This document shows positions 8,770 through 46,002 of a stretch of DNA of 64,000 nt, piece by piece. Source of the stretch: an uncultured Acidobacteriota bacterium (GTDB lineage: Bacteria > Acidobacteriota > Thermoanaerobaculia > Multivoradales > JAHEKO01). The notes beneath the pieces were generated by a model. It was not told where the DNA came from and did no database searches. It saw only the letters and a program-made list of their open reading frames with translations. The stretch spans positions 480,001 to 544,000 of the forward strand of contig CAVQNG010000025.1 of NCBI GenBank assembly GCA_963713825.1, in the 5' to 3' direction. A program made the translations under genes and the position numbers. Every line of letters begins with the position of its first letter. Positions within the stretch are counted from its first letter, which is position 1.

Positions 8770-9606
8770 CTAGCCGAACCGGCCAGTGATGTAGGCCTCG
8801 GTCTGTTCCTTCTGGGGCCGTACGAAAAGCTCGTCGGTCTTACCGTATTCGATCAAATTCCCGAGGTACATGAAGGCGGTGAGGTCGGAGATTCTCGAAG
8901 CCTGTTGCATGTTGTGGGTGACGATCACCTGGGTGTAGTCCTTCTTGAGCTCCAGCATGAGCTCTTCGATCTTGTTCGTGGAGATCGGATCCAGGGCCGA
9001 GCAGGGCTCGTCGTAGAGAATGACTTCGGGCTCGACCGCGATGGCCCGCGCGATGCACAGTCGTTGTTGCTGCCCTCCCGAGAGCCCCAGGGCCCTCTCC
9101 TGGAGACGATCCTTGACCTCGTCCCAGAGGGCAGCCCCCTTGAGGCTCTTCTCGACCACCTCGTCGAGCACCGACTTCTGACGGATGCCCTGCAAGCGCA
9201 GTCCATAGACCACGTTCTCGTAGATCGTCTTGGGGAACGGATTCGACTTCTGAAAGACCATCCCGACTCGCTTGCGCAGCAGATTGGTGTCGAAGGAGGG
9301 ATCGAGAATGCTCTCTCCCTCGAACCGGATATCGCCTTCGGTGCGGACGATGGGGATGAGATCGTTGAGTCTGTTGATGCACCGCAGGAGGGTCGACTTG
9401 CCGCAGCCCGAAGGCCCTATGTAGGCGGTGATCTGGTTCTTGGGGATCTTCATCGAGATGTTTCTCAACGCCTGCGCGTCGCCGTACCAGAGCGACAGAT
9501 CCTCGATCTCGAGAAGTGGATCCTCGATCGGGGGGTTCAGTGCTGGATCGAATGACTGGTCCAGCGGCTTGGCCTGTTGCGTCGACTCGGAGGAGACAGC
9601 GCTCAT
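8770..9606 (-). CDS. pstB: Phosphate ABC transporter ATPase PstB (copy 2)
   Basis: Same PstB motifs; ends AYITGRFG. Confidence 0.96.
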
Positions 9607-30368: not shown

Positions 30369-31187
30369 TCAGACGCCCTTGAATTCGGGCTTGCGCTTTT
30401 CGATGTAAGCGCTCAAGCCCTCCTGAGCATCTGCGCTCTGGAACAGCTGCTGCTGCAACTCTCGCTCGATGGCCAGGCCGCTCTCGAAAGGCACCTCGGC
30501 TCCCGACTGCACCGACCGCTTGATTCGGCCCACGGCTTTCGAAGCCATGTTGGGCGGGCAGAACTTCTTGGCGAAGTCGTGGATCTGACCCATGAAGTCG
30601 TCGCCGTCCAAGATGTCGTTCACCAGGCCCAATTCTTGACCCTCCTCGAAGGACAGAAGGCGGCCGGTCACCATTAGATCGATGGCCCGGCTCTTACCAA
30701 CGAGACGAGCCAACCGCTGGGTGCCGCCCGTGCCCGGCAGGACCCCGAGATTGATCTCTGGTAGTCCGAGCTTGCCACCATCCTTCTTGGCGAGGCGGAG
30801 GTCGGCGGCCATCGCGATCTCGAGGCCGCCCCCTACCGTATGACCGTTGAGGGCAGCTAGAACCAGCTTTGGCGTGTGCTCGAGCCGATTCAGGGTCTCG
30901 TTGGCGTGTAGGCAGAAGTTGTACTTGAAGTAGGGGTCGGACTTCTTCAACATGTTGATATTGGCACCGGCACAGAAGAACTTCTCGCCTAGGCCTGTAA
31001 GGACCAGGACATGGACTTCTTCGTCGAACCGGGCCTTGAGAATCGCTGTGTCCAAGTCACACATCATCTCGTGGGTGTAGGTGTTTGCCGGCGGGTCGGT
31101 GAGCGTCAAGTAGGCAACGCCATCTCGCACTTCGTAGTTGACGAGCGTCGGGTCGTTGGTGGTTCCTTCAGCGTCAGGCTGAGCCAT
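30369..31187 (-). CDS. Enoyl-CoA hydratase/isomerase
   Basis: PPANTY, FFCAGANI, GGGLEIA, LPEINLGVLPGTGGTQRL; GGAGG RBS before MAQPD. Confidence 0.92.
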   Translation of the reverse strand: MAQPDAEGTTNDPTLVNYEVRDGVAYLTLTDPPANTYTHEMMCDLDTAILKARFDEEVHVLVLTGLGEKFFCAGANINMLKKSDPYFKYNFCLHANETLNRLEHTPKLVLAALNGHTVGGGLEIAMAADLRLAKKDGGKLGLPEINLGVLPGTGGTQRLARLVGKSRAIDLMVTGRLLSFEEGQELGLVNDILDGDDFMGQIHDFAKKFCPPNMASKAVGRIKRSVQSGAEVPFESGLAIERELQQQLFQSADAQEGLSAYIEKRKPEFKGV

Positions 31188-31388
31188 AATCTTCCTCCAG
31201 TTGCAATTGGGGTGGCGGCGTGGCGCGGGCCGCCCCGCTTTGGGATCGCCTCGGTCGGCTATTGTTACACGTGCCTGGAAGGCTAGCAAATAGGGTCAGG
31301 GCCCTCGCAGCCACCCCGAGGTTGCCCTGAAGCCGTCGGAATCTTTAGAATTTCTCTTCTCGATCATGTCTCGCTCACGGCCACTCGG

Positions 31389-32126
31389 ATGATTACGGGC
31401 TACAACACCGACGTCCCCCACTCCGATGTGGTCTTTCATGTACAGACCGAGGACAAGGGTATTGCCAGCGCTTTCATCGAAAGCCTGGTCTACGTCGGTG
31501 GTCAGGTGCTGGCCAAGAAGAGGACGAGCTACAAAAGCGCCCTGGATGCAGGCGAGGGCAAGAAGCGCATCGTCGAGCTGATGGACCAACAGCACCGATT
31601 GACGATCGCCGAGATTCAAAGCGGCAAGTACGACAGCCAGGTTCCGGGAGGCAAGGCCGCCGAGTCATCGATGAGCGCTGAGGAGTTCCTGAAAGACCCG
31701 AAGGTGGCTCCCGAGGTGGAGGTGGAGCACCTGCCGACGCCGGAACCGACTCGTCAAGTCGCGACTTCGGAAGCGGAGAGCCCGACCCTCGACCAGATCA
31801 TCATGGACTACCTCAACTCGGAGTCCGAGCAGGAGGCCCTGATTCTGATGATGGACGCGGATCACGAATTCGCTCTCGGTGAGACCGTGGCTTTGCGTTT
31901 CCGCACCAAAGGCAGCCTGAGCGGACAGGCCGTGCCGGGGACTCGGATCTCGGTCAAGATGATCTCCACCGTCGTCGGTCCGGCCACCCTGGCGCAGGGT
32001 GAGACCAATGCCGGGGGCGAGCTCAAATTGTCGGTAACGATCCCTGCCCTGCAGCGCGGCAGCAGTGCCCTGATCGTGACTGCCAGCAGTGCGATTGGCA
32101 CAGCCGAGATCAAGCAACTACTGTAG
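31389..32126 (+). CDS. Conserved hypothetical protein
   Basis: N-terminal MITGYNTDV..FHVQTEDKG segment and a beta-rich C-terminus; its last ~100 nt lie inside the att repeat. Confidence 0.8.
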   Translation: MITGYNTDVPHSDVVFHVQTEDKGIASAFIESLVYVGGQVLAKKRTSYKSALDAGEGKKRIVELMDQQHRLTIAEIQSGKYDSQVPGGKAAESSMSAEEFLKDPKVAPEVEVEHLPTPEPTRQVATSEAESPTLDQIIMDYLNSESEQEALILMMDADHEFALGETVALRFRTKGSLSGQAVPGTRISVKMISTVVGPATLAQGETNAGGELKLSVTIPALQRGSSALIVTASSAIGTAEIKQLL

Positions 32127-32254
32127 GTAGAATAGCTTCGAATCTTCCCTCTCGCACTTGACGCGAGAGCGTGTATAATCCCCCGTTCGAGGGCCGCTAG
32201 CTCAACTGGCAGAGCAGCAGACTCTTAATCTGCGGGTTCGGGGTTCGAGTCCCT
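32027..32254 (+). repeat. attL: 228-bp direct repeat (copy 1)
   Basis: Matches 44260-44487 except two substitutions (CAGCGC/CAACGC and TTCGAATC/TTCGGATC). Confidence 0.95.
32191..32254 (+). pseudogene. 3'-truncated tRNA-Lys(CTT) fragment at attL
   Basis: First 64 nt of the tRNA, then diverges (TTCTCC...); lacks the 3' acceptor strand and CCA. Confidence 0.92.
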
Positions 32255-32337
32255 TTCTCCTTACTCAACACCTGCCGCTTTCTTCCTCCTCATGGGCCAC
32301 CCATGGGCCAGTTGGTATTCAAAAAACCACCGAGAAT

Positions 32338-32601
32338 CTAGCCTAGAGCCTTCGGCGGCAGCGTCCGTGCTTTCTTAGTTTCTTCGATCAGTTCCTGCAC
32401 TTTCTCCCGCACCATCTCGCTGACACTGCGCTCGGTGTAGGCGGAGATGAGCCGCAGCGCCTTCCTTTCCTCAGGAGCGAGGTAGATGACTACCCGCATG
32501 AGGCCGCCAGATGTGACGGTGGTCTCGCCACCTTTCGGGCCCTTTGGGACCTTGCCCTTGGCGGCCTTCTTGATACCTTTACCGCTGCTCGTTGGAGTCA
32601 T
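32338..32601 (-). CDS. Ribbon-helix-helix (CopG/ParG-like) DNA-binding protein with a Lys-rich N-terminal tail
   Basis: MRVVIYLAPEERKALRLISAYTERSVSEMVREKV has the beta-alpha-alpha RHH pattern. Confidence 0.75.
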   Translation of the reverse strand: MTPTSSGKGIKKAAKGKVPKGPKGGETTVTSGGLMRVVIYLAPEERKALRLISAYTERSVSEMVREKVQELIEETKKARTLPPKALG

Positions 32602-33044
32602 CGCTGTTTCCCTGCCAGATGTTCCTCTTGGCGTTGGGCGTTGATGTGCCGCCCCTGCGGCTGCGTCATGCGGATGATAACATATCGGCAACATGGGTGC
32701 ATAGGCATATGTGATTATGGGCCCGTAGAGACACGAACCCTGATCCCCAGCCACTCTTACCCTCAAAGATGATCAAAGTGGCCTCAGGGCGATTCTGAGG
32801 CGATTGTGGGCTTGGTGAGGGCCTGCTCAGAGCGCGCACTCAGCAAGGGCGATTTAGTGGACTGAGGTCAACCTCGTTGAACCACCTGGGTTCAGTCCCG
32901 ATGTCTCGCCTTCTGAATGAAGTGCATCAGTGGCTTGAAGGAGATTTCGGAGAACCATCGGCCAGACGCTCCAAGGTAGGATGGGTTTAGGAATGGCGAT
33001 GTGCCTAGTCGAAGGGCACCAGTTCGTTTTGAAGGAGGTGGGAA

Positions 33045-33362
33045 TTGCAGCTAGGCGCAGATGACACCGCCTTCGTGGTGATTACTGCTACGGTAGTTGT
33101 GGCGTTGTTGGTTTGTTGGTCTTCGCAGCGTTTCTTTAGGTACTTGAAACTTCATCATCGAGAGTTGTGGGATGAATTGGGAAGACCACATGCCTTTCTG
33201 AATCAATCGACCGATGCCACCAACTTTCTGCTACGAGGTCAGTATAGGCACCTCAAAGACCCTCGACTGAATCGTCATGGAAGCATTTGGAAGGTGACGA
33301 TGATGGGCTTTGTGGCAGCACTCTGGCTAGCACTCATATCCCTGGTGGTGAGTCAGTTGTGA
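33045..33362 (+). CDS. Small 2-TM protein (UspB-like architecture), paralogue A
   Basis: GGAGG RBS; TM, LKLHHRELWDELGRP...FLLRGQYRHLKDP, TM. Confidence 0.75.
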   Translation: MQLGADDTAFVVITATVVVALLVCWSSQRFFRYLKLHHRELWDELGRPHAFLNQSTDATNFLLRGQYRHLKDPRLNRHGSIWKVTMMGFVAALWLALISLVVSQL

Positions 33363-33416
33363 CTCGAATCCAACTGGTGTGCCAGAGGTCATGAATGAAA
33401 TGAGAACCTGACAGCG

Positions 33417-33740
33417 ATGTGGAACGCACTTCTCACCACCACTTGGTCAGCGCTCGTGGTGCTTGTCGTGACTCTCCTCATTGTCTGGTATTTGCTCCTG
33501 CGACGCCTGCGGCACCACCATGAAGAACTCTGGCACTCCTTCGGAGAGCCGAGATTTTTCAGAACAACGATTCAGAAGCAGAATGATGTTCGGAAGTTCC
33601 TACGTTCGGGGGAGTACAGGAAACTCGGTGATCCTCAAATGGACCTGCTTGTACTTCTGGCAAAGATCCTAAACCCTCTTGCATCGTTGCTGTTTGTGGT
33701 CTGGGTCGTTGGAGAGTTGTTGATGTGCTGGGTCCCGTGA
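33417..33740 (+). CDS. Small 2-TM protein, paralogue B
   Basis: TM, LRHHHEELWHSFGEP...FLRSGEYRKLGDP, TM; clearly homologous to 33045-33362. Confidence 0.78.
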   Translation: MWNALLTTTWSALVVLVVTLLIVWYLLLRRLRHHHEELWHSFGEPRFFRTTIQKQNDVRKFLRSGEYRKLGDPQMDLLVLLAKILNPLASLLFVVWVVGELLMCWVP

Positions 33741-34387
33741 TTCAGTCCGAAAGAGAGGATTGCTTGAGAGTTGGAGCCCTCTTCGCGCTTGGTGATGCTC
33801 GCCTGCTTCTGGTGGCGCTGACGATGTTCTTCGGTTGTGGCCTGATGAGTGCCGCAAAAGAGGACACTCCAACCTACAGAATCAGCAGTCTTCCAGAAGA
33901 TGCGGTCCTTGAGTATGGGTTTCACGGAGGATACGGCTTAACGTCGCCTCGGTATCACCTGTACGGTGATGGGCTCCTAGTTCGGGAGGTGATCGACAAA
34001 ATGACTAACCGAGCAGTAACCACCAAAGAGCTTCAACTCTCGCTGCAGGATGTCGATGCCCTAATGCAAATGGTGGTTGAGTCTGGAGTGCCGGAATTGA
34101 CACAGCACAAGATTCGCGCTGTGGTTGGGCCGGGGTCGTTGGTCCAAGACGCATGGATGGTGGTCTTGCAGCTACGGTTCGAGAGCTATCAAAGAGAAGG
34201 GAAAGCGGAGATAGCCCCATTTGAGCCGAAGATTACAATGGAAACACCGTCACTGGTGGCCGAGGCGTTTCCTGATTTCCGAGAAGCACATGCTCTGGTA
34301 GCGCTCAACGAAGCGCTAGAAGAGTACTTCGAACAGTCTGGAACTGAGGCGGTGATGGAAGCCTCCCAGGGCCCACCCGGCAACTGA
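33725..34387 (+). CDS. Hypothetical putative lipoprotein, paralogue A (start uncertain)
   Basis: Hydrophobic stretch ending FFGC; AVLE...GG...YHLYGDGLL. Confidence 0.72.
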   Translation: MLGPVIQSEREDCLRVGALFALGDARLLLVALTMFFGCGLMSAAKEDTPTYRISSLPEDAVLEYGFHGGYGLTSPRYHLYGDGLLVREVIDKMTNRAVTTKELQLSLQDVDALMQMVVESGVPELTQHKIRAVVGPGSLVQDAWMVVLQLRFESYQREGKAEIAPFEPKITMETPSLVAEAFPDFREAHALVALNEALEEYFEQSGTEAVMEASQGPPGN

Positions 34388-34401
34388 CAGATGAAGGTGC
34401 T

Positions 34402-35028
34402 ATGAGGGGCTCGATGGTCATTCAGAAGTACGTCACCTGCCTAGGTCTAGTAGCCCTGCTTTTTGCGGGTTGTTCGCGAAGCGGGGCAGAAGAGTTCACG
34501 CCGAACGAGATGTCTACGGGTGTACAGGACGTTGACGCGATGAACTTGGAAAGGACATTCACATTCTCCGCAGATCCCGCAGTTGCGGTCCTTCAACTTC
34601 ACTGGAGCGGCGGCTTGCGAATGGATACCGTTGAGTACTCTCTTCTAGGTGATGGGCGTCTTCGCAAGGTGCGCAGGTCTAGGAGCGCTCTTCACGAGAG
34701 CGAAGAAGTGGAGTTGTCGTATGGCGAAGCCGAGGCTCTCCTACGGCTGGCCGTCGACGGCGGGCTGATGGAATGGGACTGGGACCGTCTTCGGGCGCAA
34801 TTTGTCGCTGCAGCGGGGCATGAACCCGCAGGTACGGACTCGAGGATCCTCCAATTTCGAATTGTCCTTGAGACCTATTCGGGGATTATGGAATCGCACG
34901 AGGGTTCAATAGCAAAGACGTTCTCGACCTCATCTCCCGCTCTCCTCAGACGAGAAGCACCTGAGATCAGAGAAATCGCAGCGCTTGATGAGTTGAGTCA
35001 GCAATTGGCGCGCTATTTCGGGCGGTAA
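34402..35028 (+). CDS. Hypothetical lipoprotein, paralogue B
   Basis: Lipobox LFAGC; AVLQ...GG...YSLLGDGRL; homologous to the preceding ORF. Confidence 0.78.
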   Translation: MRGSMVIQKYVTCLGLVALLFAGCSRSGAEEFTPNEMSTGVQDVDAMNLERTFTFSADPAVAVLQLHWSGGLRMDTVEYSLLGDGRLRKVRRSRSALHESEEVELSYGEAEALLRLAVDGGLMEWDWDRLRAQFVAAAGHEPAGTDSRILQFRIVLETYSGIMESHEGSIAKTFSTSSPALLRREAPEIREIAALDELSQQLARYFGR

Positions 35029-35055
35029 ACGCGGCGGGGATAGCTCCCGACCTTG

Positions 35056-35143
35056 GCCGGTGGAGTTCCGGCGCGTGTGGCGCGCATACATTTCTCCTTA
35101 CCCCTGTTAGGGCTGGTGAAGGTGGGTGTAGGGTAGGGGGCTC
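35056..35143 (+). repeat. 88-bp island repeat, copy R1
   Basis: Aligns without gaps to 39151-39238 and 40970-41057. Confidence 0.88.
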
Positions 35144-35268
35144 AGAAGAGCGTTCCCTCAGTTGGGCTGCGCTGCAGCGTTTGGACGAATCCACTCACGA
35201 ACCTGCTTCTCACAGTCTCCACGTTTCTGCAGTACAAATGTGCCGACCAATCGCGGATCGAAAGCCAA

Positions 35269-35673
35269 TCAAGGTCCCGGTCTGTTCTGAAGGACTCGCC
35301 TTCTTCGGGGCCAAGGCAAGGGGACGTTTAGAAGACTCCAAGTCTTAACAGTCTTCCAGGTGGCACCGTCGGGTTTTTGCATTCTTGCCTTCGTCGCTGT
35401 CTTGCCTCTGTAGAACTCGACGATTCGGTAATCCCCTGACAGCAGCCCGGCGACCTCTTGGCGGCACAGTCGCCTAACGCTCTCTTCACCACATGGGAAC
35501 CATGAACCGCGAAAGGCGCCGGCTTCGAGAAACACCTCGTCAATTTGCAAGTTCAGGTTGACATCAAATAGCAGACCTCTCTGGCGGGGGATGTCCAGGT
35601 TCAGATCGAGACCACTTTCGGCAGGCTGCCTCAGCAGTCGGGCCGCTTCCTTCCGTGCAGTGTGGTCGATCAT
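35269..35673 (-). CDS. Hypothetical protein, possibly chimeric or degenerate
   Basis: 134-aa ORF containing LDIPRQRGLLFDVNLNLQ and SWFPC segments. Confidence 0.55.
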   Translation of the reverse strand: MIDHTARKEAARLLRQPAESGLDLNLDIPRQRGLLFDVNLNLQIDEVFLEAGAFRGSWFPCGEESVRRLCRQEVAGLLSGDYRIVEFYRGKTATKARMQKPDGATWKTVKTWSLLNVPLPWPRRRRVLQNRPGP

Positions 35674-35702
35674 TGGTGCGATTCTCGGCTCATCGCTTCA
35701 GT

Positions 35703-36635
35703 TCACTCGCCTGGCCGTGAGGCTCGTAACGCCCGAATCGTAGCCTCATACTGGTTGTCACCGAGAGCGACGACTGTCAAGAATCCCACCAGCTTCTGCC
35801 CATCGGGCGATTCCTGCTGGAATATCTGCATGTCGCTGACAGTCCCGCTCGACTCCGCGTCAGGAAGCCATCCCTGTTCCACCATCTGACCTCCGAAGTG
35901 CCTCGCCACTGCGACTCGAGACATGTCCACCTTGAACAGGTTGCTCCTGCTGCGGGAGTCTCCAAGACCCTGGCTGCCTGAGTTCCCCCCACCCCCGCCG
36001 CCAATCCAAACGGAGTCCTCGGGGAGATGTAGGGTGGGAAGGAAGCGTTCGAACTGGTCATAGTGGCGGTCCCCCACTAGTCGCCATCGGTCCGAACTGC
36101 CAGGCCAGCAGTCATCATCATCGAGAATGTCTAGTACTGCGAGAGTCTGATCCTGAAGCGGATGAACAACCACCGACAGCAATCTGTGGTCAGGGCCGCA
36201 AAGGGACACTTCTTCCGAGTCTGAATAGACGAACCCACCAGGCTGGGCAGGTCCCTTTTCAGCGGCTCGCCATTCCCCGCTCAACAGCGCCGCGCGGATG
36301 AGATCTCTCGCCTGGTCGGGTTTGCTGGGAACGCGTACCGCAACTCGCGCCCACGTCTCTGAGCTGGCACTTGCGACTACAGTGGCTCCGCTGGGAAGGG
36401 GGACCAGCTCTTGCAGCCCCGCCGGCATGCCTCCAGGCGTGACCGCCGGTACGCCACGAAACTTGGACGACAGCATTGCTGAAACCTCTTCTGCGGACAC
36501 GCAGTTCGACACTGTCTGCGAGAAGACCGGCATCACGAAGCAGCCCAGCATGAGACCGAGAAGGAGACCAACTCGTCCTTCGCTTCGGAAAAGAGCCACG
36601 GCACACCTCCGATCTTGGAGCGGTTGAAACCTCAT
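35703..36635 (-). CDS. Hypothetical secreted protein
   Basis: Signal-like LLLGLMLGCFVMPVFS; Gly-rich linker; start placed at MRFQ after GAGGGGG. Confidence 0.7.
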   Translation of the reverse strand: MRFQPLQDRRCAVALFRSEGRVGLLLGLMLGCFVMPVFSQTVSNCVSAEEVSAMLSSKFRGVPAVTPGGMPAGLQELVPLPSGATVVASASSETWARVAVRVPSKPDQARDLIRAALLSGEWRAAEKGPAQPGGFVYSDSEEVSLCGPDHRLLSVVVHPLQDQTLAVLDILDDDDCWPGSSDRWRLVGDRHYDQFERFLPTLHLPEDSVWIGGGGGGNSGSQGLGDSRSRSNLFKVDMSRVAVARHFGGQMVEQGWLPDAESSGTVSDMQIFQQESPDGQKLVGFLTVVALGDNQYEATIRALRASRPGE

Positions 36636-36720
36636 TCTACTGATCCCCCTCTGGAACATGTCCGACTTGTTCCCGTAGGTGACCTCAGAGACTGATATCA
36701 ACCCCGTTGAAGACCCGTCT

Positions 36721-36909
36721 TCAGTCCCGATCCCTTGAGTTTTCGCCCAAGGCGGCGAACCTGCCAACGAAGCCGAATATACCGACAAACGTCACCAGTC
36801 CCATCCAAAACCCCTTGTAGATAGCTACGTAGATTCCGGCGGCAAGACCCGCGATGAACGCGAACACGATCAACGCGAGAGGCAGAGTTCCCTCATCCCA
36901 ACGAGACAT
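36721..36909 (-). CDS. Small 2-TM protein (62 aa)
   Basis: Two hydrophobic helices; AAGG RBS. Confidence 0.55.
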   Translation of the reverse strand: MSRWDEGTLPLALIVFAFIAGLAAGIYVAIYKGFWMGLVTFVGIFGFVGRFAALGENSRDRD

Positions 36910-37032
36910 GACGTACCTTAAAGGACTGTAGCACTAGAACCACTGCGACCCGACTTCGACGGGAGTCCCTCTACCTTCCCGGGAGGGTGGTGCATCGTTT
37001 ATGTAGTGCCTGCTAGGGTGCCTCCAGCAGAG

Positions 37033-37605
37033 ATGAAGCTAACAGGTAGATCGACTCTGTTGGTAGCTGTGGCCCAGGTCCTCCTGGCGGCCAGCTTTTC
37101 CTCCCCTCAGGGGAGATACCTCTCGGACGACGAGAGTGGCGTCAGGCAGATCAGAGAGACAGGAGATCAACGCATTTGCAGAGTTGTCAGCACGGTTGAG
37201 CACCCACACCATTCGGAGGAGGAACGCAGAGAGTTCGAGTCGTTCACCAAGCTGTTCCATCTCAGTCTTCTAGAGGCGGAAGGAATACAGGTCGGGAATG
37301 GAGACCCCTGTGAAGGCGGTACCCTCGAATTGGCGATGAGGACCGCCAAAGACGAAGAGCGCGAGTACTTCTTCACAACCGTGGTTGTTCAGTACTTCGC
37401 CCACGAACCGACCAGAGAGAACCTCGGTGAAGCTGAGCCGGCGTGGGTGAAAGCCGGAGCCATAGACCCGATTCGTTACAAATCGAAGGATGCAGACAGA
37501 GATGACTGGGTCTACTTCCTGACCGGCAAGACGCTCGAGCTACACCTGAAGCTCTTCCACGAATTCGTGTCAGATTGGAAGGAGGCTCACGGGACCCCCT
37601 CGTGA
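37033..37605 (+). CDS. Hypothetical secreted protein
   Basis: Signal peptide MKLTGRSTLLVAVAQVLLAAS. Confidence 0.7.
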   Translation: MKLTGRSTLLVAVAQVLLAASFSSPQGRYLSDDESGVRQIRETGDQRICRVVSTVEHPHHSEEERREFESFTKLFHLSLLEAEGIQVGNGDPCEGGTLELAMRTAKDEEREYFFTTVVVQYFAHEPTRENLGEAEPAWVKAGAIDPIRYKSKDADRDDWVYFLTGKTLELHLKLFHEFVSDWKEAHGTPS

Positions 37606-37613
37606 GAGCTGGT

Positions 37614-37934
37614 ATGGACTCGCTGGGGTTGGCGGGTGATCCTGCCGCAAAGACCGGTATCGCAGCCTTGTCCGAGGAATACTTTGGATTGCCGCCAGAG
37701 GCCCTGGTGGTCGTAATCGTGGCCTCTGCAATTGGGTTCGGAGCGTCACTTCTGTTTACCCGCTCCTACCTCCGACGAGTAGGGAAACCTTGGACCTCGG
37801 CGTTGCATCCTCGGTTTATGCTTGATGCGGATTTCAACAAGAGAGAGCTGCTGATCTTGGGCGCCACGTTTGCCCTAGTATTTCTCTGGCTGTTGCTCTC
37901 CTCTTTCGTGAGGGGTTGGTTGAAGTACAGATAG
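37614..37934 (+). CDS. Small 2-TM protein
   Basis: TM, RRVGKPW...DFNKRE, TM. Confidence 0.65.
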   Translation: MDSLGLAGDPAAKTGIAALSEEYFGLPPEALVVVIVASAIGFGASLLFTRSYLRRVGKPWTSALHPRFMLDADFNKRELLILGATFALVFLWLLLSSFVRGWLKYR

Positions 37935-38140
37935 CTCCTGCACCATCCTTGTCTTTTTCGTTCTGGGGTGTGTTCCATGAGCGCTCCCTCCAGTCCAAAT
38001 ACCTTGGTAGTTAGGCCCGCCACTCAGACCGGGCATGACGGTTGAGTGGGGGTGCGGCATCGTGGTCCACTGGAGGGGTTCCCCAGGGAGGTCAGGGCGT
38101 CGGTTACACTTCTCTTGGTCAAATTGTGCGGAGGGGGCTA

Positions 38141-38674
38141 ATGCTCAAGCTGATCGGTTATCCCGCGATCGTAGTCTCGAGCCTGAGTCTGGTGGCTAGT
38201 CTGGCGATTATCCTAGCTGCGCCCACCGGATGGATAGACTCCGAAGATGTGGTCCTCCTAGCCATGATCTTGAGCATCGTTGTTCCTGGAGGAGCCGCGA
38301 TTCTGATCGTCAATACGGAGTTCGAGAATCTGTCTCAGCGCCAAGTGATGAAGCTGAGCTGGGAGTTGTGTCCTCGCTGGATGCGGCTTCTGGGGAGGAT
38401 CCTGATTGCCATGGGTTTTCTAGCCTTCCTTGGAGAGGTTGCGGTAGGAGCCATTGGAACCTCCTCTGAAACCGAAGGTTCCACAGCTCTCTCCACGGGC
38501 GGTTTTGGACTCGTGATTCATGCGTGGGCAATCGTCTTGATCTATGGAGCAATGCAGTTGCAGGAGAATCTAGCCCGGTCTCGGTGCAAGTTCGGTCACG
38601 AGGTCCCGTTGGGTGCGAAGTTCTGTCCCGAGTGTGGTGAAAGAGCTAACCCAGAAGGCGCTCGACTCGAGTGA
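38141..38674 (+). CDS. 4-TM protein with C-terminal zinc ribbon
   Basis: GGAGG RBS; CKFGHEVPLGAKFCPECG. Confidence 0.75.
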   Translation: MLKLIGYPAIVVSSLSLVASLAIILAAPTGWIDSEDVVLLAMILSIVVPGGAAILIVNTEFENLSQRQVMKLSWELCPRWMRLLGRILIAMGFLAFLGEVAVGAIGTSSETEGSTALSTGGFGLVIHAWAIVLIYGAMQLQENLARSRCKFGHEVPLGAKFCPECGERANPEGARLE

Positions 38675-38749
38675 GTACTCAGGTCGAGTCAAGTCAATCG
38701 CACTACCCGAAGACGTGGCGACTGCTGAGCAGCGTCCCGTTAGGCTGTT

Positions 38750-39214
38750 GTGGAAATGGTCTCAGCTGAAGGTAGTCTCCAGCTTGACGCCACCACCCGG
38801 ATGGCGATTGGCTGCATTGTCGCGGCACTGGCATTCGAGTTGTTTGCGGTGGGCGCGATGGTCTGGCAAGAGTCCCAAGCCGTCGGCCTCCCAGTCTTGT
38901 TAGGCTGCGTTGGGGTACTCGGGATGGGAGTTCTCTTGGCCTCCGTTTGCAGCTTCTTGATCTGGTTTCATCGAGCTTACAGGCGCTTGGAAGTCCTCGA
39001 GGTGGGGAATCGTAGGTACTCCGCCACTTGGGCTGTTCTGGGGTGGTTCATTCCGTTTCTAAACTTGGTTCGTCCGTACCGCGTGGCCATCGAAATCTGG
39101 GAAAGGACGGACTCCTACTGCTGCCTGCAAGCGGGCGGGCCGGCAGCTCCGCCGGAAAGTACCCGGCGTGTGTGGAGCGCATTCATCCGCTCTGAACCCG
39201 GTCGGGGCTGGTGA
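38750..39214 (+). pseudogene. DUF4328-like membrane protein, apparently C-terminally truncated at repeat R2
   Basis: FLIWFHRAY..L, WAVLGWFIPFLNLVRPY..EIW signature; the frame then runs into R2 and stops. Confidence 0.6.
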
Positions 39215-39238
39215 AGGTGGGTGTGGGGTATGGGGCTC
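39151..39238 (+). repeat. 88-bp island repeat, copy R2
   Basis: Aligns without gaps to R1 and R3. Confidence 0.88.
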
Positions 39239-39584
39239 GGACCACCAGGCGCTCTGCTGTGCAACTAGGCAGCTGCTCTAGCGGGAATCCGAGAAGCGGC
39301 GAAAGAGAACGTGAGCCACCTCGGCGGCGGAGGGATTCGCATTCAGGGCCGCGACAAACGCTGGTGAGCCTCTGATACGGTGCCTGCCGGCAACGATCAT
39401 TTCCCGCCACGAGACAAGAAGCACTAGCCTGGCAGATCTTCTCGGGCAAGAGGGATGGTTGTTGGCTCTGTCGGGAGTCGTGGTTGTGGTCTAGCGAACC
39501 AGAAGTGGATCATGACGAGCACCCACCCAGTTGGGTAGTGCGTCGTAGTTGCTGATCTGGTAGTTATCAGTAGGAGCGAACTCG

Positions 39585-40970
39585 GTGAGCGTATCTTCTT
39601 TCTGCCAGCGGGTAACTAGTGGAGCAGTGAGAAATTATGCCCTCATCCTGCTGTCGTTTCTAATAGGGGCGCTGCTTCATGCTCAGGAGTCCATTCGTCT
39701 AGGCGACGAGTTCCAGGTCAACTCCTACACCCCGGGAAACCAATGGCGTTCCGATGTAGCAGTGGACGCCCAGAGCAACTTCGTGGTCGTCTGGCAAAGC
39801 CGAACGTCGCCCGGCACAGACGCGAGCTGCTACAGCATCCAGGCGCAGCGCTACGACTGCGATGGGACACCTGTCGGAGGACAGTTTCAGGTCAACTCCT
39901 ATACGACGAGCTGCCAGGAGATCCCCAGGGTGGCAACCGATCCACAGGGCAACTTCGTGGTTGTCTGGGAGAGCTATGGGTCGTACGGCTCGGACGCGAG
40001 CTACCACAGCATTCAGGCGCAAAAGTATGATGCCAACGGAACTCCTCTTGGGGGCCAGTTCCAGGTCAACTCCTACACCACCGGAAACCAATGGTGGTCC
40101 GATGTTGCAATGGACGCCCAGGGCAACTTCGTGGTGGTCTGGACAAGCTGGGGTTCCTTCGGCACAGACTCAAGCCCCGAGAGCATTCAAGCGCAGTACT
40201 ACGACTCCAGTGGCACGCCCGTGAGAGGAGAGTTTCAGGTCAATAGCTATACAACGTACAGCCAAATCCGACCCGCAGTGGCTGTCGACGCCCAGGGCAA
40301 CTTCGTGGTGGTCTGGGGCAGCTGGGGATCGTACGGCACAGACACAAACTTCTGGAACGTGCAGGGTCAGCGATTCACCGGCAAGGGCTTGGCTTTGGGT
40401 AGAGAGTTCCAGGTCAACAGCCTCAGTGAAGACATCCAAAACTCGCCCAGAGTGGCGGCGGGTGCGAACGGCAGCTTCGTTGTCGTCTGGAGAACAGACG
40501 GCGAGTCCCCCGGCACCGATTCCAGTGTCAGCAGTGTCCAGGGGCGGCGCTTCGACGCCAGTGGAAGAGCATTGGGTAGCCAGTTTCAGATTAACTCCTA
40601 CACCATTAACCGCCAGGAAGAAGCCGCAGTAGCCTTGGACACAGAGGGCAACTATGTGGTCGCCTGGGCGAGCTTGGGTTCGGATGGCACGGACACCAGT
40701 TCCTGGAGTGTCCAAGGTCAACGCTTCACCAGCAATGGCTCACCTCTGGGAGACGAGTTCCAGGTCAACAGCTACACCTCGATTCATCAGCGCCGCCCAG
40801 CTCTGGCTGTTGGACCAAACGGTACATTCGTGGTCGTATGGGAGAGCTATGGTTCGTACGGCACGGATACGAGCCAGGCCAGTATCCAGGCTCAGCTCTA
40901 CGCCACATCGATCTTCGCGGACGGCTTTGAGTCAGGGGATACGTCTGCATGGGACGACACCGTGCCCTAG
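39585..40970 (+). CDS. Secreted protein with seven ~58-aa repeats (probable beta-propeller) and C-terminal IFADGFESGD motif
   Basis: Signal peptide; 7 copies of [EQ]FQVNSYT..Q...VA.D..GNFVVVW; ends IFADGFESGDTSAWDDTVP. Start may be the GTG at 39628. Confidence 0.88.
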   Translation: MSVSSFCQRVTSGAVRNYALILLSFLIGALLHAQESIRLGDEFQVNSYTPGNQWRSDVAVDAQSNFVVVWQSRTSPGTDASCYSIQAQRYDCDGTPVGGQFQVNSYTTSCQEIPRVATDPQGNFVVVWESYGSYGSDASYHSIQAQKYDANGTPLGGQFQVNSYTTGNQWWSDVAMDAQGNFVVVWTSWGSFGTDSSPESIQAQYYDSSGTPVRGEFQVNSYTTYSQIRPAVAVDAQGNFVVVWGSWGSYGTDTNFWNVQGQRFTGKGLALGREFQVNSLSEDIQNSPRVAAGANGSFVVVWRTDGESPGTDSSVSSVQGRRFDASGRALGSQFQINSYTINRQEEAAVALDTEGNYVVAWASLGSDGTDTSSWSVQGQRFTSNGSPLGDEFQVNSYTSIHQRRPALAVGPNGTFVVVWESYGSYGTDTSQASIQAQLYATSIFADGFESGDTSAWDDTVP

Positions 40971-41057
40971 CCGGCGAATACCCGGCGCGTGTGGAGCCCA
41001 CTCATTCACAACTACCCCTGTGGGGGCTGGCCAAGGTGGGTGTGGGGTGGAGGGCAC
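40970..41057 (+). repeat. 88-bp island repeat, copy R3
   Basis: Begins at the last base of the upstream TAG stop codon. Confidence 0.88.
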
Positions 41058-41059
41058 GC

Positions 41060-41690
41060 GTGAATCGCCAGAGGTTGGCCAGCGAGACCCTGCCTTGCTA
41101 GCTATACATTGCGAATATGTCGCAGATCTCTGCAAGGTGCTGTCTCACAGTAACTTACGTGCGTTACCGCTGTCTCAGATACTGCAAAGTACCCTGGTTT
41201 AGCCTACTCCCAGGAGTCCTCCAGAGCGGGCAGGAGGCAGAGAGAGGGAGAGGAAATCCCAATAGGCAAGGCTGGTGGCAGGCGGGGCGAGTGTTGACTG
41301 TTTGTAGTCCCAGCACTCCGAACGGCATCACGAAGCAGCGCACTCCGAGACACGCCTTGGGGGCGTGCTCGGTATTCTGCTGGCTAGCGGGATGCTCCCG
41401 AAGAGCGTTCTCAGTCAGCCGATAACTAGCCCAATTTGAATTGGGCTGAATCGGCTGCTAGCCAGATCCTCTAGTGGAAGGATTCGTAAGAGGTCCTAGA
41501 AAGTATCCTAGGCATATGAGCCCTGACTGCGCCCCAGCTCTGGGGGGTTGAATCCCCCAAGTCTGGGGCGCAGGAGGTGAGTGAGAGGGTAGAGCTGAAG
41601 GGTATAGATTGCTACTCTTCTAACCTCCTTCTAAGCCCTCTATACCTCCCCAGTTCCCCCCTCTTAGCACGAAGTGCCCCACCCCTCCAT
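41060..41690. other. Putative replication origin of the element (non-coding, hairpin-rich, downstream of rep)
   Basis: Hairpins CAGCCGAT..AGCCCAATT-TG-AATTGGGCT..ATCGGCTG and CTGCGCCCCAG..GGGGG-TTGAAT-CCCCC..CTGGGGCGCAG; purine and pyrimidine tracts. Confidence 0.5.
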
Positions 41691-43172
41691 TTACTGATTT
41701 TCTGTTCTTATCCCTAGGCTCTCCAAGTCTCTTCGAACGGTTCTCGGGTGGCTGCCGATCGCCGCTGCCAGCTGTCTCAGCGAGAAGGGCAGGGGGTCAC
41801 CGTGAGTCTCGGCGAGATGTTCAAGTGCCTCGTGTCGCCGCCGCTGCTCCAGCTTCCTTTTGCCCTTCTCAGGCCTATACTCAAAGTCGGGCCGAATGCT
41901 GAGCAGTTCAAGATTGTCGGCTTCCTCAACAGTGACCCCCAGGAGCCTGGCGACGGTCTTGTTCCTAGGCGGGTTCAGGTTTGAGAGTCCGCTTTTCATC
42001 TGAGTTCGCGCTTCATGCGGTGCCATCTCAGGATGGCAATGCTCTGCGATTTTCAGTACCTCTCTCTCGATCGCTTCGTCGGGGTACCCGATACCGCGCA
42101 GTATCGTGGCTGCTAGGTAACACGCATGCCGACGAGTACCCTGAGAGAACCCGCCTCTCGCGTAGCGGATGATCTGAAACTCTACCCACAGGCGTTCATA
42201 CCTGGCCTTTTGCGCCTTGCGCTTGGGTGCGAGCTGGGCGATCTCCTGGTCCGTTTTTTTCGGCCTTGGCCGTGGCGGCTTCTTTCTGACTTCTGGCTCT
42301 TTCTCAAGACCCAGGTACTCCCGTAATTCCTCCAATGTGTAGCTGGCGGGGAATCCGCTGTCCTCGAGGTAGACGAAGTACTCAACAGGCAACCCGACCT
42401 TGGAGTTGATACTCCCGGCAACTCGCTGATGAGTCGTCACCTTGACAGGATCCTCGTCGGGTTCAAGCTCAGGGCGAGTGGCATTCAACCTTGCGACTAG
42501 AGCCAGATTGATTCGTTCCTGAAGTCTCCTATTGCGATACCAAGCCTTTGGCGGCGATGTACCCAGCTGTCCCTGAATCAGCCTCGCTAGTTCGAGCGCA
42601 GGTGGATCACTCTCATCGACAAGAAACCAGTAGGGGCGGACTCCACGCCCAGTGCGCTCGATGGCCGAGATCGGAGGCACCAGTCTTTCGGATTCCAGTC
42701 CCTTTAAATACCCCATGGCTGTCGTGAAATCCAGCTGTTCGCAATCGCAATCTACCCAAACCGCTGTCAGACGGTGATAGCTTTTCTCCGTGGGCCATGG
42801 CCTCGGACCGTAGACAGTGTTGATGGATACGTAGGCGTCAGTCTTCAGCTGATTGATCACGGGCTGCCATGTGATCACGTACTCCAGGCGCTCAAGTGGC
42901 ACCGAGCCTCTGAACCGACCTGCGTACAGAAACCGTGGTTGGTCGTCAGTCTTTCTCCAGAAGTGAACATAGCGACCACCAAAGTCCAGATTCCAGCGGT
43001 TGCTGTGGAAGTACTTGAGGTGCCCAACACTTAGCCCTTCAGCGCCAAAATGCAGCTCCTTCTTCAATAGTTGCCTCCCCCATGTGGGCCAGAAACAGTC
43101 TCTAGACAGCCCTGTAATCGCCCGTATTTGGCCTCTGTCGGACGTTCCCTCTAAACCCGAACATCCGCTCAT
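41691..43172 (-). CDS. Replication initiator: AEP primase-like domain, PriCT-1-like domain and C-terminal HTH (start uncertain)
   Basis: AYVSIN, AVWVDCD (hhhDhD), TGRGVRPYW, QRVAGSINSK; GTRRHACYLAA..G...PEMAPHE (PriCT-like); SLRQLAAAIGSHPRTVRRDL (HTH). Confidence 0.78.
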   Translation of the reverse strand: MSGCSGLEGTSDRGQIRAITGLSRDCFWPTWGRQLLKKELHFGAEGLSVGHLKYFHSNRWNLDFGGRYVHFWRKTDDQPRFLYAGRFRGSVPLERLEYVITWQPVINQLKTDAYVSINTVYGPRPWPTEKSYHRLTAVWVDCDCEQLDFTTAMGYLKGLESERLVPPISAIERTGRGVRPYWFLVDESDPPALELARLIQGQLGTSPPKAWYRNRRLQERINLALVARLNATRPELEPDEDPVKVTTHQRVAGSINSKVGLPVEYFVYLEDSGFPASYTLEELREYLGLEKEPEVRKKPPRPRPKKTDQEIAQLAPKRKAQKARYERLWVEFQIIRYARGGFSQGTRRHACYLAATILRGIGYPDEAIEREVLKIAEHCHPEMAPHEARTQMKSGLSNLNPPRNKTVARLLGVTVEEADNLELLSIRPDFEYRPEKGKRKLEQRRRHEALEHLAETHGDPLPFSLRQLAAAIGSHPRTVRRDLESLGIRTENQ

Positions 43173-44208
43173 TCATGCGGCTCACTACCTTGGTCGTGTG
43201 CTGATCGGACAGGTGACTGTACCTCTTAACTACTGCCAGGGTCTTGTGTCCGAGAACCTCGGCGATCTCGGCGAGGGTGGCACCGCTCATGGCGAGATAT
43301 GAGGCAGCCGTGTGGCGGAGATCGTGAAAGCGGAAGTCGTCGATTCGAGCCTTTCTGAGAGCGCGCTCCCATGCCTTTCTCGGGAAAGTCGCTTTTCCGC
43401 CTGGAGCAGGGAAAACGAGGTCGGTGTCCATCCGTCTGACCTTTCTCATCTCGCGAAGCAGCTCCGCCGCGTAGCCGGTCACGGGAACCGCCCTCCGTTC
43501 ACCGTTCTTGGTGTGATGGATGATAGCCAGGCCACGGCTGCTGTCTATGTCATTCCAACAGAGCCCGAGAAGCTCACTCTGACGGGCACCCGTGGAGAGA
43601 GCCAAGACCACTAGAGGATAGAGTCTCCGCTCACTGCTGCTTCGACAAGATGCGAGTAGTTGGTCTCTCTCGTAGTCGGACAGAAACCGTACTCGCCCGC
43701 GAGGCTCGCGCTCTCTGGACACGGATCTGACAGGGTTGGTCCCTGTCCAGCCCACTTCTCTGATTGCGAAGGTGAAGGCGTGAGAGAGCGCTGCAAGGTA
43801 TCGATTCACCGTGCCAGCTGCCCTTCGTGTTCCCTTCGGAGTCAGACCTCTGGAGAGTACCTTCTTTCGGCTCGCTACCAGCTCGGGTGTTACATGCGCC
43901 AAGCAGTAACCTCCGAGCTGGGCCTTCCACCAGAGCAGCTGAGCCCTTTGAACCCGAATGCTTGCCGGTTTGCCCGGCATGGCTTCGACAAGGTAAAGGT
44001 CTACCAGCTCGCCAAGCGTACGGCGCTGAGCTTGGCTAGTCCTGAGGTACCGCCCTTCCCGAATCCCGGTCTCTGTCTGCTCTGCCCACTGCTTGGCGAG
44101 ACTCTTCTTTTGAAAGGTCGCTGTCTGAGGGGGAAACCCCTTAATACGAACTCGAGCCCGGTAGCTGATGGTCCCTGTTTTCGATATCCTGCGTTGAATG
44201 GTGGCCAC
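43102..44208 (-). CDS. Tyrosine recombinase / site-specific integrase
   Basis: GAGGAGG RBS plus GTG; N-terminal arm-binding-like YRARVR; catalytic R (TGARQSE), K (TKNG), HDLRH, LGH, RY. Confidence 0.95.
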   Translation of the reverse strand: MATIQRRISKTGTISYRARVRIKGFPPQTATFQKKSLAKQWAEQTETGIREGRYLRTSQAQRRTLGELVDLYLVEAMPGKPASIRVQRAQLLWWKAQLGGYCLAHVTPELVASRKKVLSRGLTPKGTRRAAGTVNRYLAALSHAFTFAIREVGWTGTNPVRSVSREREPRGRVRFLSDYERDQLLASCRSSSERRLYPLVVLALSTGARQSELLGLCWNDIDSSRGLAIIHHTKNGERRAVPVTGYAAELLREMRKVRRMDTDLVFPAPGGKATFPRKAWERALRKARIDDFRFHDLRHTAASYLAMSGATLAEIAEVLGHKTLAVVKRYSHLSDQHTTKVVSRMNERMFGFRGNVRQRPNTGDYRAV

Positions 44209-44259
44209 GGAGACCTCCTCTTGGGTCTGTGGTCCACGGGTTGTCCAACGAGGAGGAAG

Positions 44260-44487
44260 ATTGTCGGTAACGATCCCTGCCCTGCAACGCGGCAGCAGTG
44301 CCCTGATCGTGACTGCCAGCAGTGCGATTGGCACAGCCGAGATCAAGCAACTACTGTAGGTAGAATAGCTTCGGATCTTCCCTCTCGCACTTGACGCGAG
44401 AGCGTGTATAATCCCCCGTTCGAGGGCCGCTAGCTCAACTGGCAGAGCAGCAGACTCTTAATCTGCGGGTTCGGGGTTCGAGTCCCT
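44260..44487 (+). repeat. attR: 228-bp direct repeat (copy 2)
   Basis: Copy of 32027-32254: 3' end of the upstream host gene, CTCTCGC/GCGAGAG hairpin, TATAAT and the 5' 64 nt of tRNA-Lys. Confidence 0.95.
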
Positions 44488-44499
44488 GGCGGCTCACCA
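44424..44499 (+). tRNA. tRNA-Lys(CTT)
   Basis: GGGCCGC/GCGGCTC acceptor stem, GCAGA-CTCTTAA-TCTGC anticodon arm, GTTCGAG T-loop, CCA end. Confidence 0.97.
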
Positions 44500-44553
44500 G
44501 CCTTTTCAATCTCTCCCCGGTGCATCAGCATCGCCTAGCCGGAAGAGTTCGGT

Positions 44554-44639
44554 GCGAAAGTGGCGGAATTGGTAGACGCGCTAGACTTAGGATCTAGTCC
44601 CGTAAAGGGGTGGGGGTTCGAGTCCCCCCTTTCGCACCA
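44554..44639 (+). tRNA. tRNA-Leu(TAG)
   Basis: GCGAAAG/CTTTCGC acceptor stem, CTAGA-CTTAGGA-TCTAG anticodon arm, long variable arm, CCA end. Confidence 0.97.
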
Positions 44640-44694
44640 TATCGTCATTCCACGAACCCACTCATAGTATGGCCAGAAAGGACCTTCTGCTCCC

Positions 44695-46002
44695 GTGAGC
44701 GTAGTGCTATCCATCGAAGACGTCGGGCCCTGTCGTAAGCAGCTCAAGGTCGAGGTACCCGCACCGGCGGTAGAGGCCGAGTCGAAGCGTGTTGTCGAGG
44801 AGTATCGAAAGCACGCCAAGTTGCCAGGCTTCCGCCAAGGCAAGGTGCCGACAGAGTTGGTGAAACAGAAGTTCCACAAAGAAATCGAGCAGGATGTTGT
44901 CGAGCGACTCCTGCCCCGGTACTGGAAACAGGCCGAGGCCGAGAGCGAGCTGGATCCCCTGTTGCCTCCGAGCGTCGACGAGGTCGACTACCAACCCGGT
45001 GCCCCCCTGACCTTCGTAGCATCGGTCGAGACTCGACCCGAGATCGAGCTGGGGAGCCTCGAGGACTTCGAGCTACCGGATTTCGAGACCGAGCCCACCG
45101 AGGAGGAGATCGGGCAAGCGCTCGAGGACATGCGACGAGCCGTCGCCGAGTGGGTGGCAGCAGACAGGCCGGCCGCGACCGGTGATCTGGTTGCAGGCCA
45201 GCTGGCCCAGCTCGACCCGGAGAGCGGCGAGCCTGGAGCCGAGAAGCCCTTCAGCTTCGAGGTGGGCGATCCTCAGGTATGGGAAGAGCTCACTTTGGAA
45301 GTCACAGGCAAGCAGGCCGGCCAACAGGCCGATTTCTTCCGCCAGGAGGGCGAAGGGGACGATGCGGTCTCACGCCGCTTCCGGGTCAAGGTCGAGGCGG
45401 TTCGCGAGCGGGATCTCCCCGCATTGGATGATTCGTTGGCGGCCCAGTTCGGCGACTATGCAGACGTGGACGCGCTGCGACAGGGAGTGCGAGGGGAGCT
45501 CAGGCGCGGCAAAGCGTCGGAGCGCAGTCAGCAGCGTGAACGGGCGATGCTGGACCAGCTGCTCGAGCGTCACCCCTTCGAACTGCCACAGGGAGTCGTG
45601 GACAACGAGATCGAGGGTATGCTCAAGGAGTACGCCCAGAGTCTGGCCGGGCAAGGGGTCGATTTGGAGAACGCCGATCTCGATTGGCCTACCATGGCCG
45701 AACAGATCCGGCCGCAGGCCGAGCGCCGGGTCCACGCTCGACTGCTGCTCGATGCCATCACTTCCCATCAGAAGATCGAAGTCGGTGAAGAGGACTTCGA
45801 GGCCGCGTTGGCCGCCATCGGCAGGGCTCAGGGGCGAAGCGCAGTCAGTGTTCGGCAGGCTCTGGACAAGTCTGGCAACCTGATCGGCTTCAGGGCTCAA
45901 TTGGCCAGGGAGAAGGCCATCAAGAGTCTCCTCGGCGAAGAATCGGTCGAGCCGACACCCGAGAGTGGGGAGCCCGAGACCGAATCCGAGAACGAAGGTT
46001 GA
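44695..46002 (+). CDS. tig: Trigger factor
   Basis: [10 protein letters not shown] ribosome-binding signature; tRNA-Leu-tig-clpP-clpX-lon synteny. Confidence 0.94.

Follow-up and report, generated by a model that had tools for sequence, protein, structure and literature searches.

In integrons, the attC sites fold as imperfect palindromes over their whole length and carry inverse core and core sites, and in composite islands that grow when several elements integrate site-specifically in tandem, for instance tandem tRNA islands and the composites of staphylococcal cassette chromosomes (SCC), the internal repeats are copies of the attachment (att) site. As for priming, an excerpt of PMC8567376 states that the RepB' primase of plasmid RSF1010 needs single-strand initiation (ssi) sites of 40 nucleotides (nt), with a hairpin at nt 7–27, and that it starts its primer in the GTG at nt 31–33 of the site; an excerpt of PMC4234260 also gives GTG as the start of the pRN1 primase and places the pRN1 origin 3' of the rep gene. 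The present analysis concerns an 88-base direct repeat, with copies R1, R2 and R3, in a genomic island of an uncultured Acidobacteriota bacterium (assembly GCA_963713825.1, contig CAVQNG010000025.1, positions 480,001 to 544,000 of the forward strand; this stretch of 64,000 nt is called the window). The repeat is non-coding sequence under selection, is confined to mobile elements of one lineage, and is tentatively regarded here as a cis element that forms the last conserved part, on the cargo side, of the origin-side backbone of such elements, with a priming signal as its likeliest function.

Sequence and conservation of the repeat

The sequence-only reading of the window had reported three direct and ungapped copies of the repeat, and alignment with MAFFT, together with a repeat finder, returned exactly the same coordinates, namely 35056–35143 for R1, 39151–39238 for R2 and 40970–41057 for R3, all on the + strand. 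A recount on the three-copy alignment also agrees with the original hand count, with 57 of the 88 columns invariant and 31 variable. The pairwise identities are 66, 65 and 67 of 88 bases, an nhmmer search of all 38 contigs of the assembly (5.42 Mb) with a profile of the three copies recovers them at E-values of 5e-22 to 1e-21, and BLAST of R1 against R2 and R3 gives E-values of 2e-13 and 2e-9: the similarity is far beyond chance and the repeat is real. In the flanks, similarity is at background level. That the three copies are about equally distant from one another is expected of separate lineages, and not of a recent duplication in place.

The variable columns are clustered, with runs of 8 and 7 nt (P=1.5e-4 by permutation). 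The 7-nt run is the loop of a hairpin, the 5-bp stem of which (GCCGG/CCGGC) is invariant while all seven loop columns vary, just as it had been described from the sequence. The hairpin as such (positions 1–17) and the GTGTGG at positions 20–25 are invariant features of all three full copies. Since the variable columns fall into two patches, constraint along the repeat is uneven, and this fits a functional element better than neutral debris.

The label 'structured', under which the repeat was first presented, did not survive: fold energies are ordinary, with z-scores between −1.7 and +0.35 for the RNA folds of the six strands of the three copies, and no pair covaries. The invariant stems say nothing for or against structure. 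In single-stranded DNA (ssDNA), the hairpin is part of the minimum-energy fold of all three full copies, and not of a half copy found on another contig (see below). Only local hairpins are formed, one of 5 bp and one of 3–4 bp, both with invariant stems and variable loops, and neither single-sequence nor consensus folds contain any end-to-end pairing of the repeat. Four runs of at least three G are kept in all three copies, with substitutions falling between the runs, and each copy contains the predicted motif of a G-quadruplex, defined as four runs of at least three G with short loops; the G4Hunter scores of the repeat are 1.77–1.93, in a genome in which 187 regions reach at least 1.75.

Other readings of these motifs were considered and set aside. 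A tRNA-like interpretation of the 5-bp stem and 7-nt loop found no match with ARAGORN or Rfam, a pseudoknot between the two variable patches would pair in R1 only, and the key bases of Chi-like and promoter-like sequences vary among the copies, the last two judgements having been made by eye.

Distribution in genomes and metagenomes

The genome contains three full copies of the repeat and one decayed half copy, all of them in two mobile elements. The half copy, detected both by nhmmer and by the covariance model, lies at 3698–3742 of a contig here called C35 and corresponds to repeat positions 3–47. C35 represents a second mobile element, which encodes an integrase, a RepA_C protein and a DnaB-like helicase, and on it the half copy is found 37 nt after the stop codon of an open reading frame (ORF) that ends in ...GFESGDTSAWDDTVP, a tail in common with the gene of 461 amino acids (aa) that precedes R3. 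Between C35 and the R3 region the DNA is similar over the final 60 bases of coding sequence, across the stop codon and on into the repeat. The statement that no copy exists outside the island thus holds for the window, but not for the rest of the genome.

Beyond this genome, the searches made gave no acceptable independent copy of the repeat. In 40 relatives, BLAST gave only chance matches of 15–27 nt; in 150 other genomes of the order, the best score of the covariance model was 25.6 bits versus 110–112 bits for the true copies, and matches at E≤0.1, found in 50 of the 150 genomes, were all at or below this value. The five best foreign matches to the model are partial or gapped and were rejected. 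One match on a contig designated L026, limited to the first half of the repeat (31 of 45 bases) and lying beside a triplicated gene end, is probably due to chance and was dropped. The L026 locus itself (1–2100) holds two copies (90% identical) of the terminal 153 nt of a gene and three of its terminal 37 nt; these gene-end copies lie on either side of an ATPase gene of opposite strand, with five 43-nt tandem repeats after them, an arrangement suggestive of insertions that recurred at a gene's 3' end.

The exact pattern of a 22-base core has no match in species-representative genomes and none in IMG/VR; its single match in metagenome contigs, on a contig of 1565 bp, was discarded as an independent copy because the contig is nearly identical to the window around R1 and represents the same element. 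A blastn search of plasmids and phages gave no match to the repeat, Rfam gave none on any copy at E≤5 (in the window, only tRNAs pass its gathering threshold), and near the att sites no copies of the motif were found that could act as arm sites of the integrase. The profile and covariance-model search that the sequence-only reading had proposed as a check accordingly places the full copies in a single island with integrase and Rep, and the two outcomes that it had named as refutations, a REP- or MITE-like family scattered throughout the genome and a known Rfam family, are at odds with three and a half copies genome-wide and with the empty Rfam search. The element itself is not restricted to one sample, as DNA of the stretch from cargo to integrase (34450–44400) was detected in 20 sequencing runs of 11 studies, on marine sediment, salt-marsh and estuary.

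The island and its backbone

The island (32255–44259, approx. 12 kb) is inserted at tRNA-Lys between two copies of a 228-nt direct repeat that are 99% identical. The attL copy (32027–32254, + strand) comprises the terminal part of a host gene, followed by the promoter of the tRNA and the initial 64 nt of tRNA-Lys, and it ends in a tRNA-like remnant (32027–32263 region, 35 bits); the attR copy (44260–44487, + strand) runs into the intact tRNA-Lys at 44424–44499. The bounds follow from the uninterrupted site, present in all five same-genus genomes searched, in which the host gene end, the promoter, tRNA-Lys, tRNA-Leu and the trigger-factor gene follow in this order. What is duplicated is not the usual 3' part of the tRNA gene, but its 5' 64 nt together with 164 nt upstream, so that, at the right end, the 5' half and promoter of the intact tRNA are those of the copy next to the island's integrase end. 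The 88-base repeat has no similarity to this att repeat.

A tyrosine integrase is encoded on the − strand at 43102–44346 (PF00589 at E 6e-30; also phrog_1 and an NCBIfam model), its listed start probably over-extending into the att repeat. Next to it, also on the − strand, lies the gene of Rep (41691–43172), a protein of 493 aa with a C-terminal helix-turn-helix (HTH) that profile comparison suggests to be a RepB-type primase-like protein, and all copies of the repeat have the same orientation relative to both genes. Rep has no Pfam family at E≤0.01, with weak HTH-type matches at E≤5, and no PHROG or NCBIfam family; Pfam revealed no helicase domain in it. Eight relatives were found at E≤0.001 among 5.8 billion protein clusters, and a relative that is 86% identical is encoded on a contig of 12.9 kb. 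In five relatives, DxD-like, GRGV.YW and R.aGS.N.K motifs of the archaeo-eukaryotic primase kind are invariant. Comparison by hhalign of the Rep profile with an Acinetobacter plasmid protein gave a probability of 97.2% (E 3e-11), and this protein, annotated as 'DNA-primase RepB domain-containing', scores 21.9 bits on PF16793 (cut-off 24.3). Rep is on this basis called RepB-type primase-like, which is short of a family assignment. A distant relative of 703 aa, P0007, has the Pfam Prim-Pol domain at 14–166 and the Rep-like region at 275–672, and would hold two primase-like modules. Between R3 and the 3' end of the Rep gene, two palindromes (41416–41457 and 41527–41573) make the stretch 41416–41573 a plausible candidate for the origin, to judge from its position.

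No related Rep locus was found with the Rep alignment in species-representative genomes and viral contigs, and a class-level scan of 400 other genomes gave a Rep match in two. The better of these (E 2.5e-51) belongs to an island at tRNA-Arg with the same gene order. In this island (L041, 8920–19245), which is 10.3 kb long, bounded by a 45-nt direct repeat and ordered as cargo, Rep relative and integrase, a perfect 24-nt repeat occurs at 12562–12585 and 16054–16077, the latter copy in overlap with the stop codon of Rep; the stretch 3' of Rep also contains two copies of a 29-nt repeat.

Edges of the repeat and neighbouring genes

As the sequence-only reading had stated, the copies lie at the joints between gene blocks of the island, and R3 marks the boundary between cargo and origin. 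The distance of 27 nt given there between R1 and the preceding stop codon is correct; the gene that ends here (34402–35028, + strand) encodes a predicted lipoprotein of 208 aa with no Pfam, PHROG or NCBIfam match. It closes the first cargo block (33045–35028), which is made of two side-by-side paralogous gene pairs, one for small membrane proteins of 105 and 107 aa and the other for predicted lipoprotein-like products of 220 and 208 aa, again with no family match. The gene said to be cut at R2 is indeed truncated: it is a DUF4328 gene (38750–39214, + strand; PF14219 at E 6e-19), whose reading frame runs 64 nt into R2, and whose family match covers profile positions 16–93 of 166 and ends at 39139, 12 nt before the repeat. 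R2 replaces the second half of this gene, and the missing half was not found anywhere in the genome.

R3 begins, as originally described, on the last base of a stop codon, that of the gene for a secreted repeat protein of 461 aa built of 58-aa units (39585–40970, + strand; the true start is likely the GTG at 39627, after GGAG, on sequence grounds). This protein ends in ...GFESGDTSAWDDTVP, and at least eight paralogues in the genome end in GFESGD.SAW...V[PQ] followed by the stop codon; from this shared C-terminus, R3 starts at the natural end of the gene, which is not cut. The protein contains about seven tandem units (174 nt, 58 aa) at 39695–40905 and has 25 matching places in its own genome, the best of them 46–63% identical and many ending in the same ...GFESGD.SAW...VP tail. 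Its paralogues in the host indicate that the family is native to the host lineage.

Measured from the stop codon, the left edge of the repeat is at 0 nt for R3, 27 nt for R1 and 37 nt for the half copy on C35, and, with R2 included, the unit has a sharp left boundary in each of four contexts that are unrelated to one another. The 27-nt spacer before R1 (35029–35055), directly 3' of the stop codon, aligns with the 35-nt stretch between stop and repeat on C35 and loosely with the bases before R2, where a weaker left extension starts at approx. 39125. The common spacer implies that in R1 and C35 the unit is approx. 115 nt long and begins directly after the stop codon, and that R3, which adjoins its stop codon, lost the spacer. 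The right edge is not sharp, and fades into a weak colinear similarity toward the origin. The non-coding stretch that follows R2 (39239–39620, + strand) is weakly colinear with 41058–41435 after R3, the score over these approx. 380 nt being reached by one of 86 real-sequence controls in each direction; the 'echo' of the origin region that had been noticed after R2 stands to this extent, but nothing stronger was found.

Proposed history and role of the repeat

The picture of the repeat as the edge of the backbone derives from its sharp left and soft right edges, its fixed orientation, the position of R3 beside the candidate origin and the equally deep divergence of the three copies. Elements of this family would be organized as cargo, repeat, origin, Rep primase, integrase and att, with R3 as the resident copy. 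R1 and R2 would have come in together with blocks of cargo whose source elements were related but had diverged beforehand, perhaps by way of tandem integration at the same tRNA and later loss of the redundant part with origin, Rep and integrase. The repeat would then be the last piece kept by selection, with breakpoints piling up at its left edge, either just past a stop codon or within a gene, and the right side decaying gradually; selection on the repeat in each ancestral lineage would explain both its block-wise conservation and breakpoints that stop at the left edge. On ssDNA, the 5-bp hairpin with GTGTGG 2–4 nt later would constitute an initiation signal for a RepB-type primase, and the tract of G runs, as a potential quadruplex, might be an accessory part of it. 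A priming signal for Rep had been listed among the alternatives in the sequence-only reading, and it is the best anatomical fit of those named there, the function being one that we infer, as we do the acting strand and the history of tandem fusion.

A number of observations weigh against this proposal. The signal of 40 nt would leave approx. 58 of the 88 bases, those 3' of the ssi-like part, without need, and ssi pairs sit on opposite strands in the vegetative origin oriV, while the copies described here are all on the + strand and no copy on the opposite strand was found by nhmmer or the covariance model, both used on both strands. Rep is only loosely tied to RepB': it matches neither RepB_primase (PF16793) nor Prim-Pol of Pfam, and it aligns to residues 275–672 of P0007, outside the Prim-Pol domain of the latter. 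The stability of the ssDNA hairpins is ordinary (z-scores of −1.0 to −2.5), and none of the 24 RNAalifold pairs shows compensatory changes. As to the history, the colinearity downstream of R2 and R3 reaches only about P 0.01, and the similarity of the stretch after R1 to the origin side, the other 'echo' originally noticed, is at chance level, its score being attained by 100 of 300 shuffles and equalled by real-sequence controls. No remnant of a second backbone was detected in the cargo, where the matches of tblastn with Rep and integrase went no lower than E 0.37, and the search for a third copy of att, or for another piece of tRNA, inside the island was negative. The tRNA-Arg island with the better Rep match has no recognizable repeat. 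Finally, the four occurrences of the repeat all lie tight against the 3' end of a gene of the same orientation, which is not required of a replication signal and is better explained by a role at the RNA level.

Such a role would be that of a 3' element of the upstream gene, transcribed as the untranslated tail of cargo mRNAs, whose hairpins and G-rich part would end or protect the transcript or yield a small RNA, and which would travel with gene ends as cargo passes from element to element. It would agree with the co-orientation of all four copies with the upstream ORF, after the end of which they start within 0–37 nt, with the location of R1 and R3 between convergent genes, where terminators are expected, with the pair of small hairpins, invariant in their stems and variable in their loops, and with the similarity between C35 and the R3 region, which spans gene end and repeat, so that both moved together. 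However, the repeat has no U/T tract, and none of the 12 terminator-like sites of the island coincides with any copy; the unremarkable fold energies, the absence of covarying pairs and the lack of an Rfam match even at a permissive threshold add to this. Conservation of 57 of 88 bases next to unrelated genes is not what ordinary terminators show, and R2 follows an ORF that is itself a broken gene. No RNA contig over a copy was seen among those listed for one metatranscriptome, an observation too weak to count. We hold an RNA-level element to be rather doubtful. The position past stop codons, as in attC sites, is shared by the explanation first put forward, a site-specific recombination or capture site at which a recombinase inserts modules, in the manner of an integron without attC. 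The layout is array-like, with a cargo block followed by the repeat three times in one orientation up to the backbone, and the DUF4328 gene is cut at the edge of R2. In one sequencing run (X3), moreover, two listed contig pieces end at 35051 and one at 41062, at most 5 nt from repeat edges; with a depth of 5–9 these breakpoints are a weak hint, and they may be due to branching in the population, to chance or to low coverage of the G-rich tract. A low depth over 38744–39227 in runs X6 and X10 was given no weight. Yet the only recombinase of the island is a phage-type integrase that uses the 228-nt tRNA-Lys repeat, to which the 88-base repeat is dissimilar, and it scores 44.2 bits with the integron-integrase model TIGR02249 (cut-off 265) and 25.2 bits with NF011946 (cut-off 435). 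There is no attC-like palindrome from end to end of the repeat, the blocks between copies contain about 5, 7 and 1 ORFs on both strands, the cut gene points to illegitimate joining and away from a precise one, and the divergence of 25% between copies is too large for homologous exchange. Joints from repeat to repeat, which the sequence-only reading had suggested looking for in reads, were sought in contigs of four sequencing runs on 31000–45500: none is present among the 15 joints listed of 44, all 15 falling within the tandem 174-nt units of the gene for the 461-aa protein; with this many joints listed and contigs that are short, the result is weak and does not show that such joints are absent. 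Of the supports first given to a capture site, the echo after R1 is at chance level and the gene before R3 is not cut. No test came out in its favour and, with an integrase that is not of the integron type, no palindrome and multi-gene modules, it is now considered unlikely. Capture of a non-integron kind, in which an integrative element with a primase would add one cargo block after the other at a post-stop site of approx. 90–115 nt, the substrate being a hairpin and G-quadruplex on ssDNA that the element's replication exposes, seems quite unlikely.

The remaining explanations regard the repeat as protein-coding or as selfish DNA. A relic of a coding segment, or a live coding piece, would be read in the + frame as G.CGAH..(5)..PVGAGEGGCGV.G. 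This frame and its antisense are the only two of six without stops in all copies, its codon differences are 17 synonymous versus 30 non-synonymous, as compared with 4–10 synonymous of 41–47 in the other five frames, and in the half copy on C35 four of the nine differing codons are synonymous. Still, the copies have no start codon in common, and the profile of the three peptides found, among 1.84 billion representatives, two proteins at E≤0.001, both long and matched in 9–12 short stretches each, which indicates low-complexity matching and not a family. For the antisense ORF of 75 aa no relative was found; the phases of the 16 isolated variable columns (7/6/3) are not significant; GC content is lowest at the third codon position (0.55), unlike in real genes here; and the variable patches, of 7 and 8 nt, are not multiples of three. 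The coding relic named among the earlier alternatives, which no protein family matches, is kept as a minor and very improbable rival. A low-copy selfish intergenic repeat of the miniature inverted-repeat transposable element (MITE) or repetitive extragenic palindrome (REP) type, inserting after stops and surviving only on mobile DNA, would account for a short, non-coding sequence with sharp edges that lies just past stop codons in two mobile elements of one genome. But the 5.4 Mb of the genome contain no more than 3.5 copies, of which the chromosome proper has none, no terminal inverted repeats are reported and the aligned flanks have no shared target duplication, the copies are 25% diverged, none of them being recent for that reason, and searches of 190 related genomes gave no copy; the likelihood of such a repeat is slight indeed.

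Implications

Should the repeat be the edge signal of an origin-side backbone, it would provide a simple marker of the swapping and stacking of cargo in small integrative replicons, and it would bring to two the natural cases of a RepB-type primase with a complex, sequence-specific priming site. If it were instead a capture site, it would define a cassette system outside the integron model. The family of elements is rare, with eight Rep relatives, yet environmentally widespread, so that it can be traced in metagenomes.

Other features of the window

Two further sets of repeats were noticed in the window. Three colinear inverted-repeat pairs of 91–398 nt, 76–84% complementary and approx. 4–5 kb apart, connect 4062–4802 with 8772–9512 and are probably two diverged paralogous genes in opposite orientation. 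At 51404–51535, in an apparent coding region, a 39-nt tandem repeat is present in two copies that are 95% identical and one that is 69% identical.

Comparison with known systems

With integron attC sites the repeat has in common that it follows or overlaps the stop codons of cargo genes, in one orientation and in similar copies, within an array that ends at a backbone with a tyrosine recombinase; it differs in that neither an integron integrase nor a site-wide imperfect palindrome is found here. Integron cassettes mostly consist of one promoterless ORF, all in the same orientation, which is not the case of the island blocks: these are multi-gene and two-stranded modules, and one flanking gene is cut. 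No attI site or cassette promoter was identified in the island. REP elements and bacterial interspersed mosaic elements (BIME), enterobacterial repetitive intergenic consensus (ERIC) sequences and MITEs are likewise short, non-coding, endowed with small hairpins and placed just 3' of genes, but they occur in tens to hundreds of chromosomal copies, as opposed to 3.5 copies that are all on mobile elements. Islands formed by tandem integration resemble this one in having internal direct repeats at the joints between blocks and one functional backbone left, and differ from it because the 88-base repeat bears no relation to the att repeat of 228 nt, of which there is no internal remnant here.

The similarities to replication systems concern the origin side. 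The palindromes of the candidate origin lie 3' of the primase-like Rep, as the origin of pRN1 does with respect to its primase, and GTG is a known start motif there according to the excerpt of the pRN1 paper; pRN1, however, combines an SF3 helicase domain with one stem-loop of approx. 100 nt, and the repeat does not form a long stem-loop. The ssiA and ssiB sites of IncQ plasmids (RSF1010, with RepB') are 40 nt long and occur once per strand inside oriV, whereas the repeat is 88–115 nt long, is present in three copies on one strand over 6 kb, and has 58 nt at its 3' side with no counterpart in ssi. What the two share, in so far as the excerpt on RSF1010 describes ssi, is a hairpin with a GTG a few bases further on, in non-coding and strand-specific sequence, a likeness of architecture only, to which are added the RepB-type primase-like Rep encoded by the island and the location of R3 beside the candidate origin.

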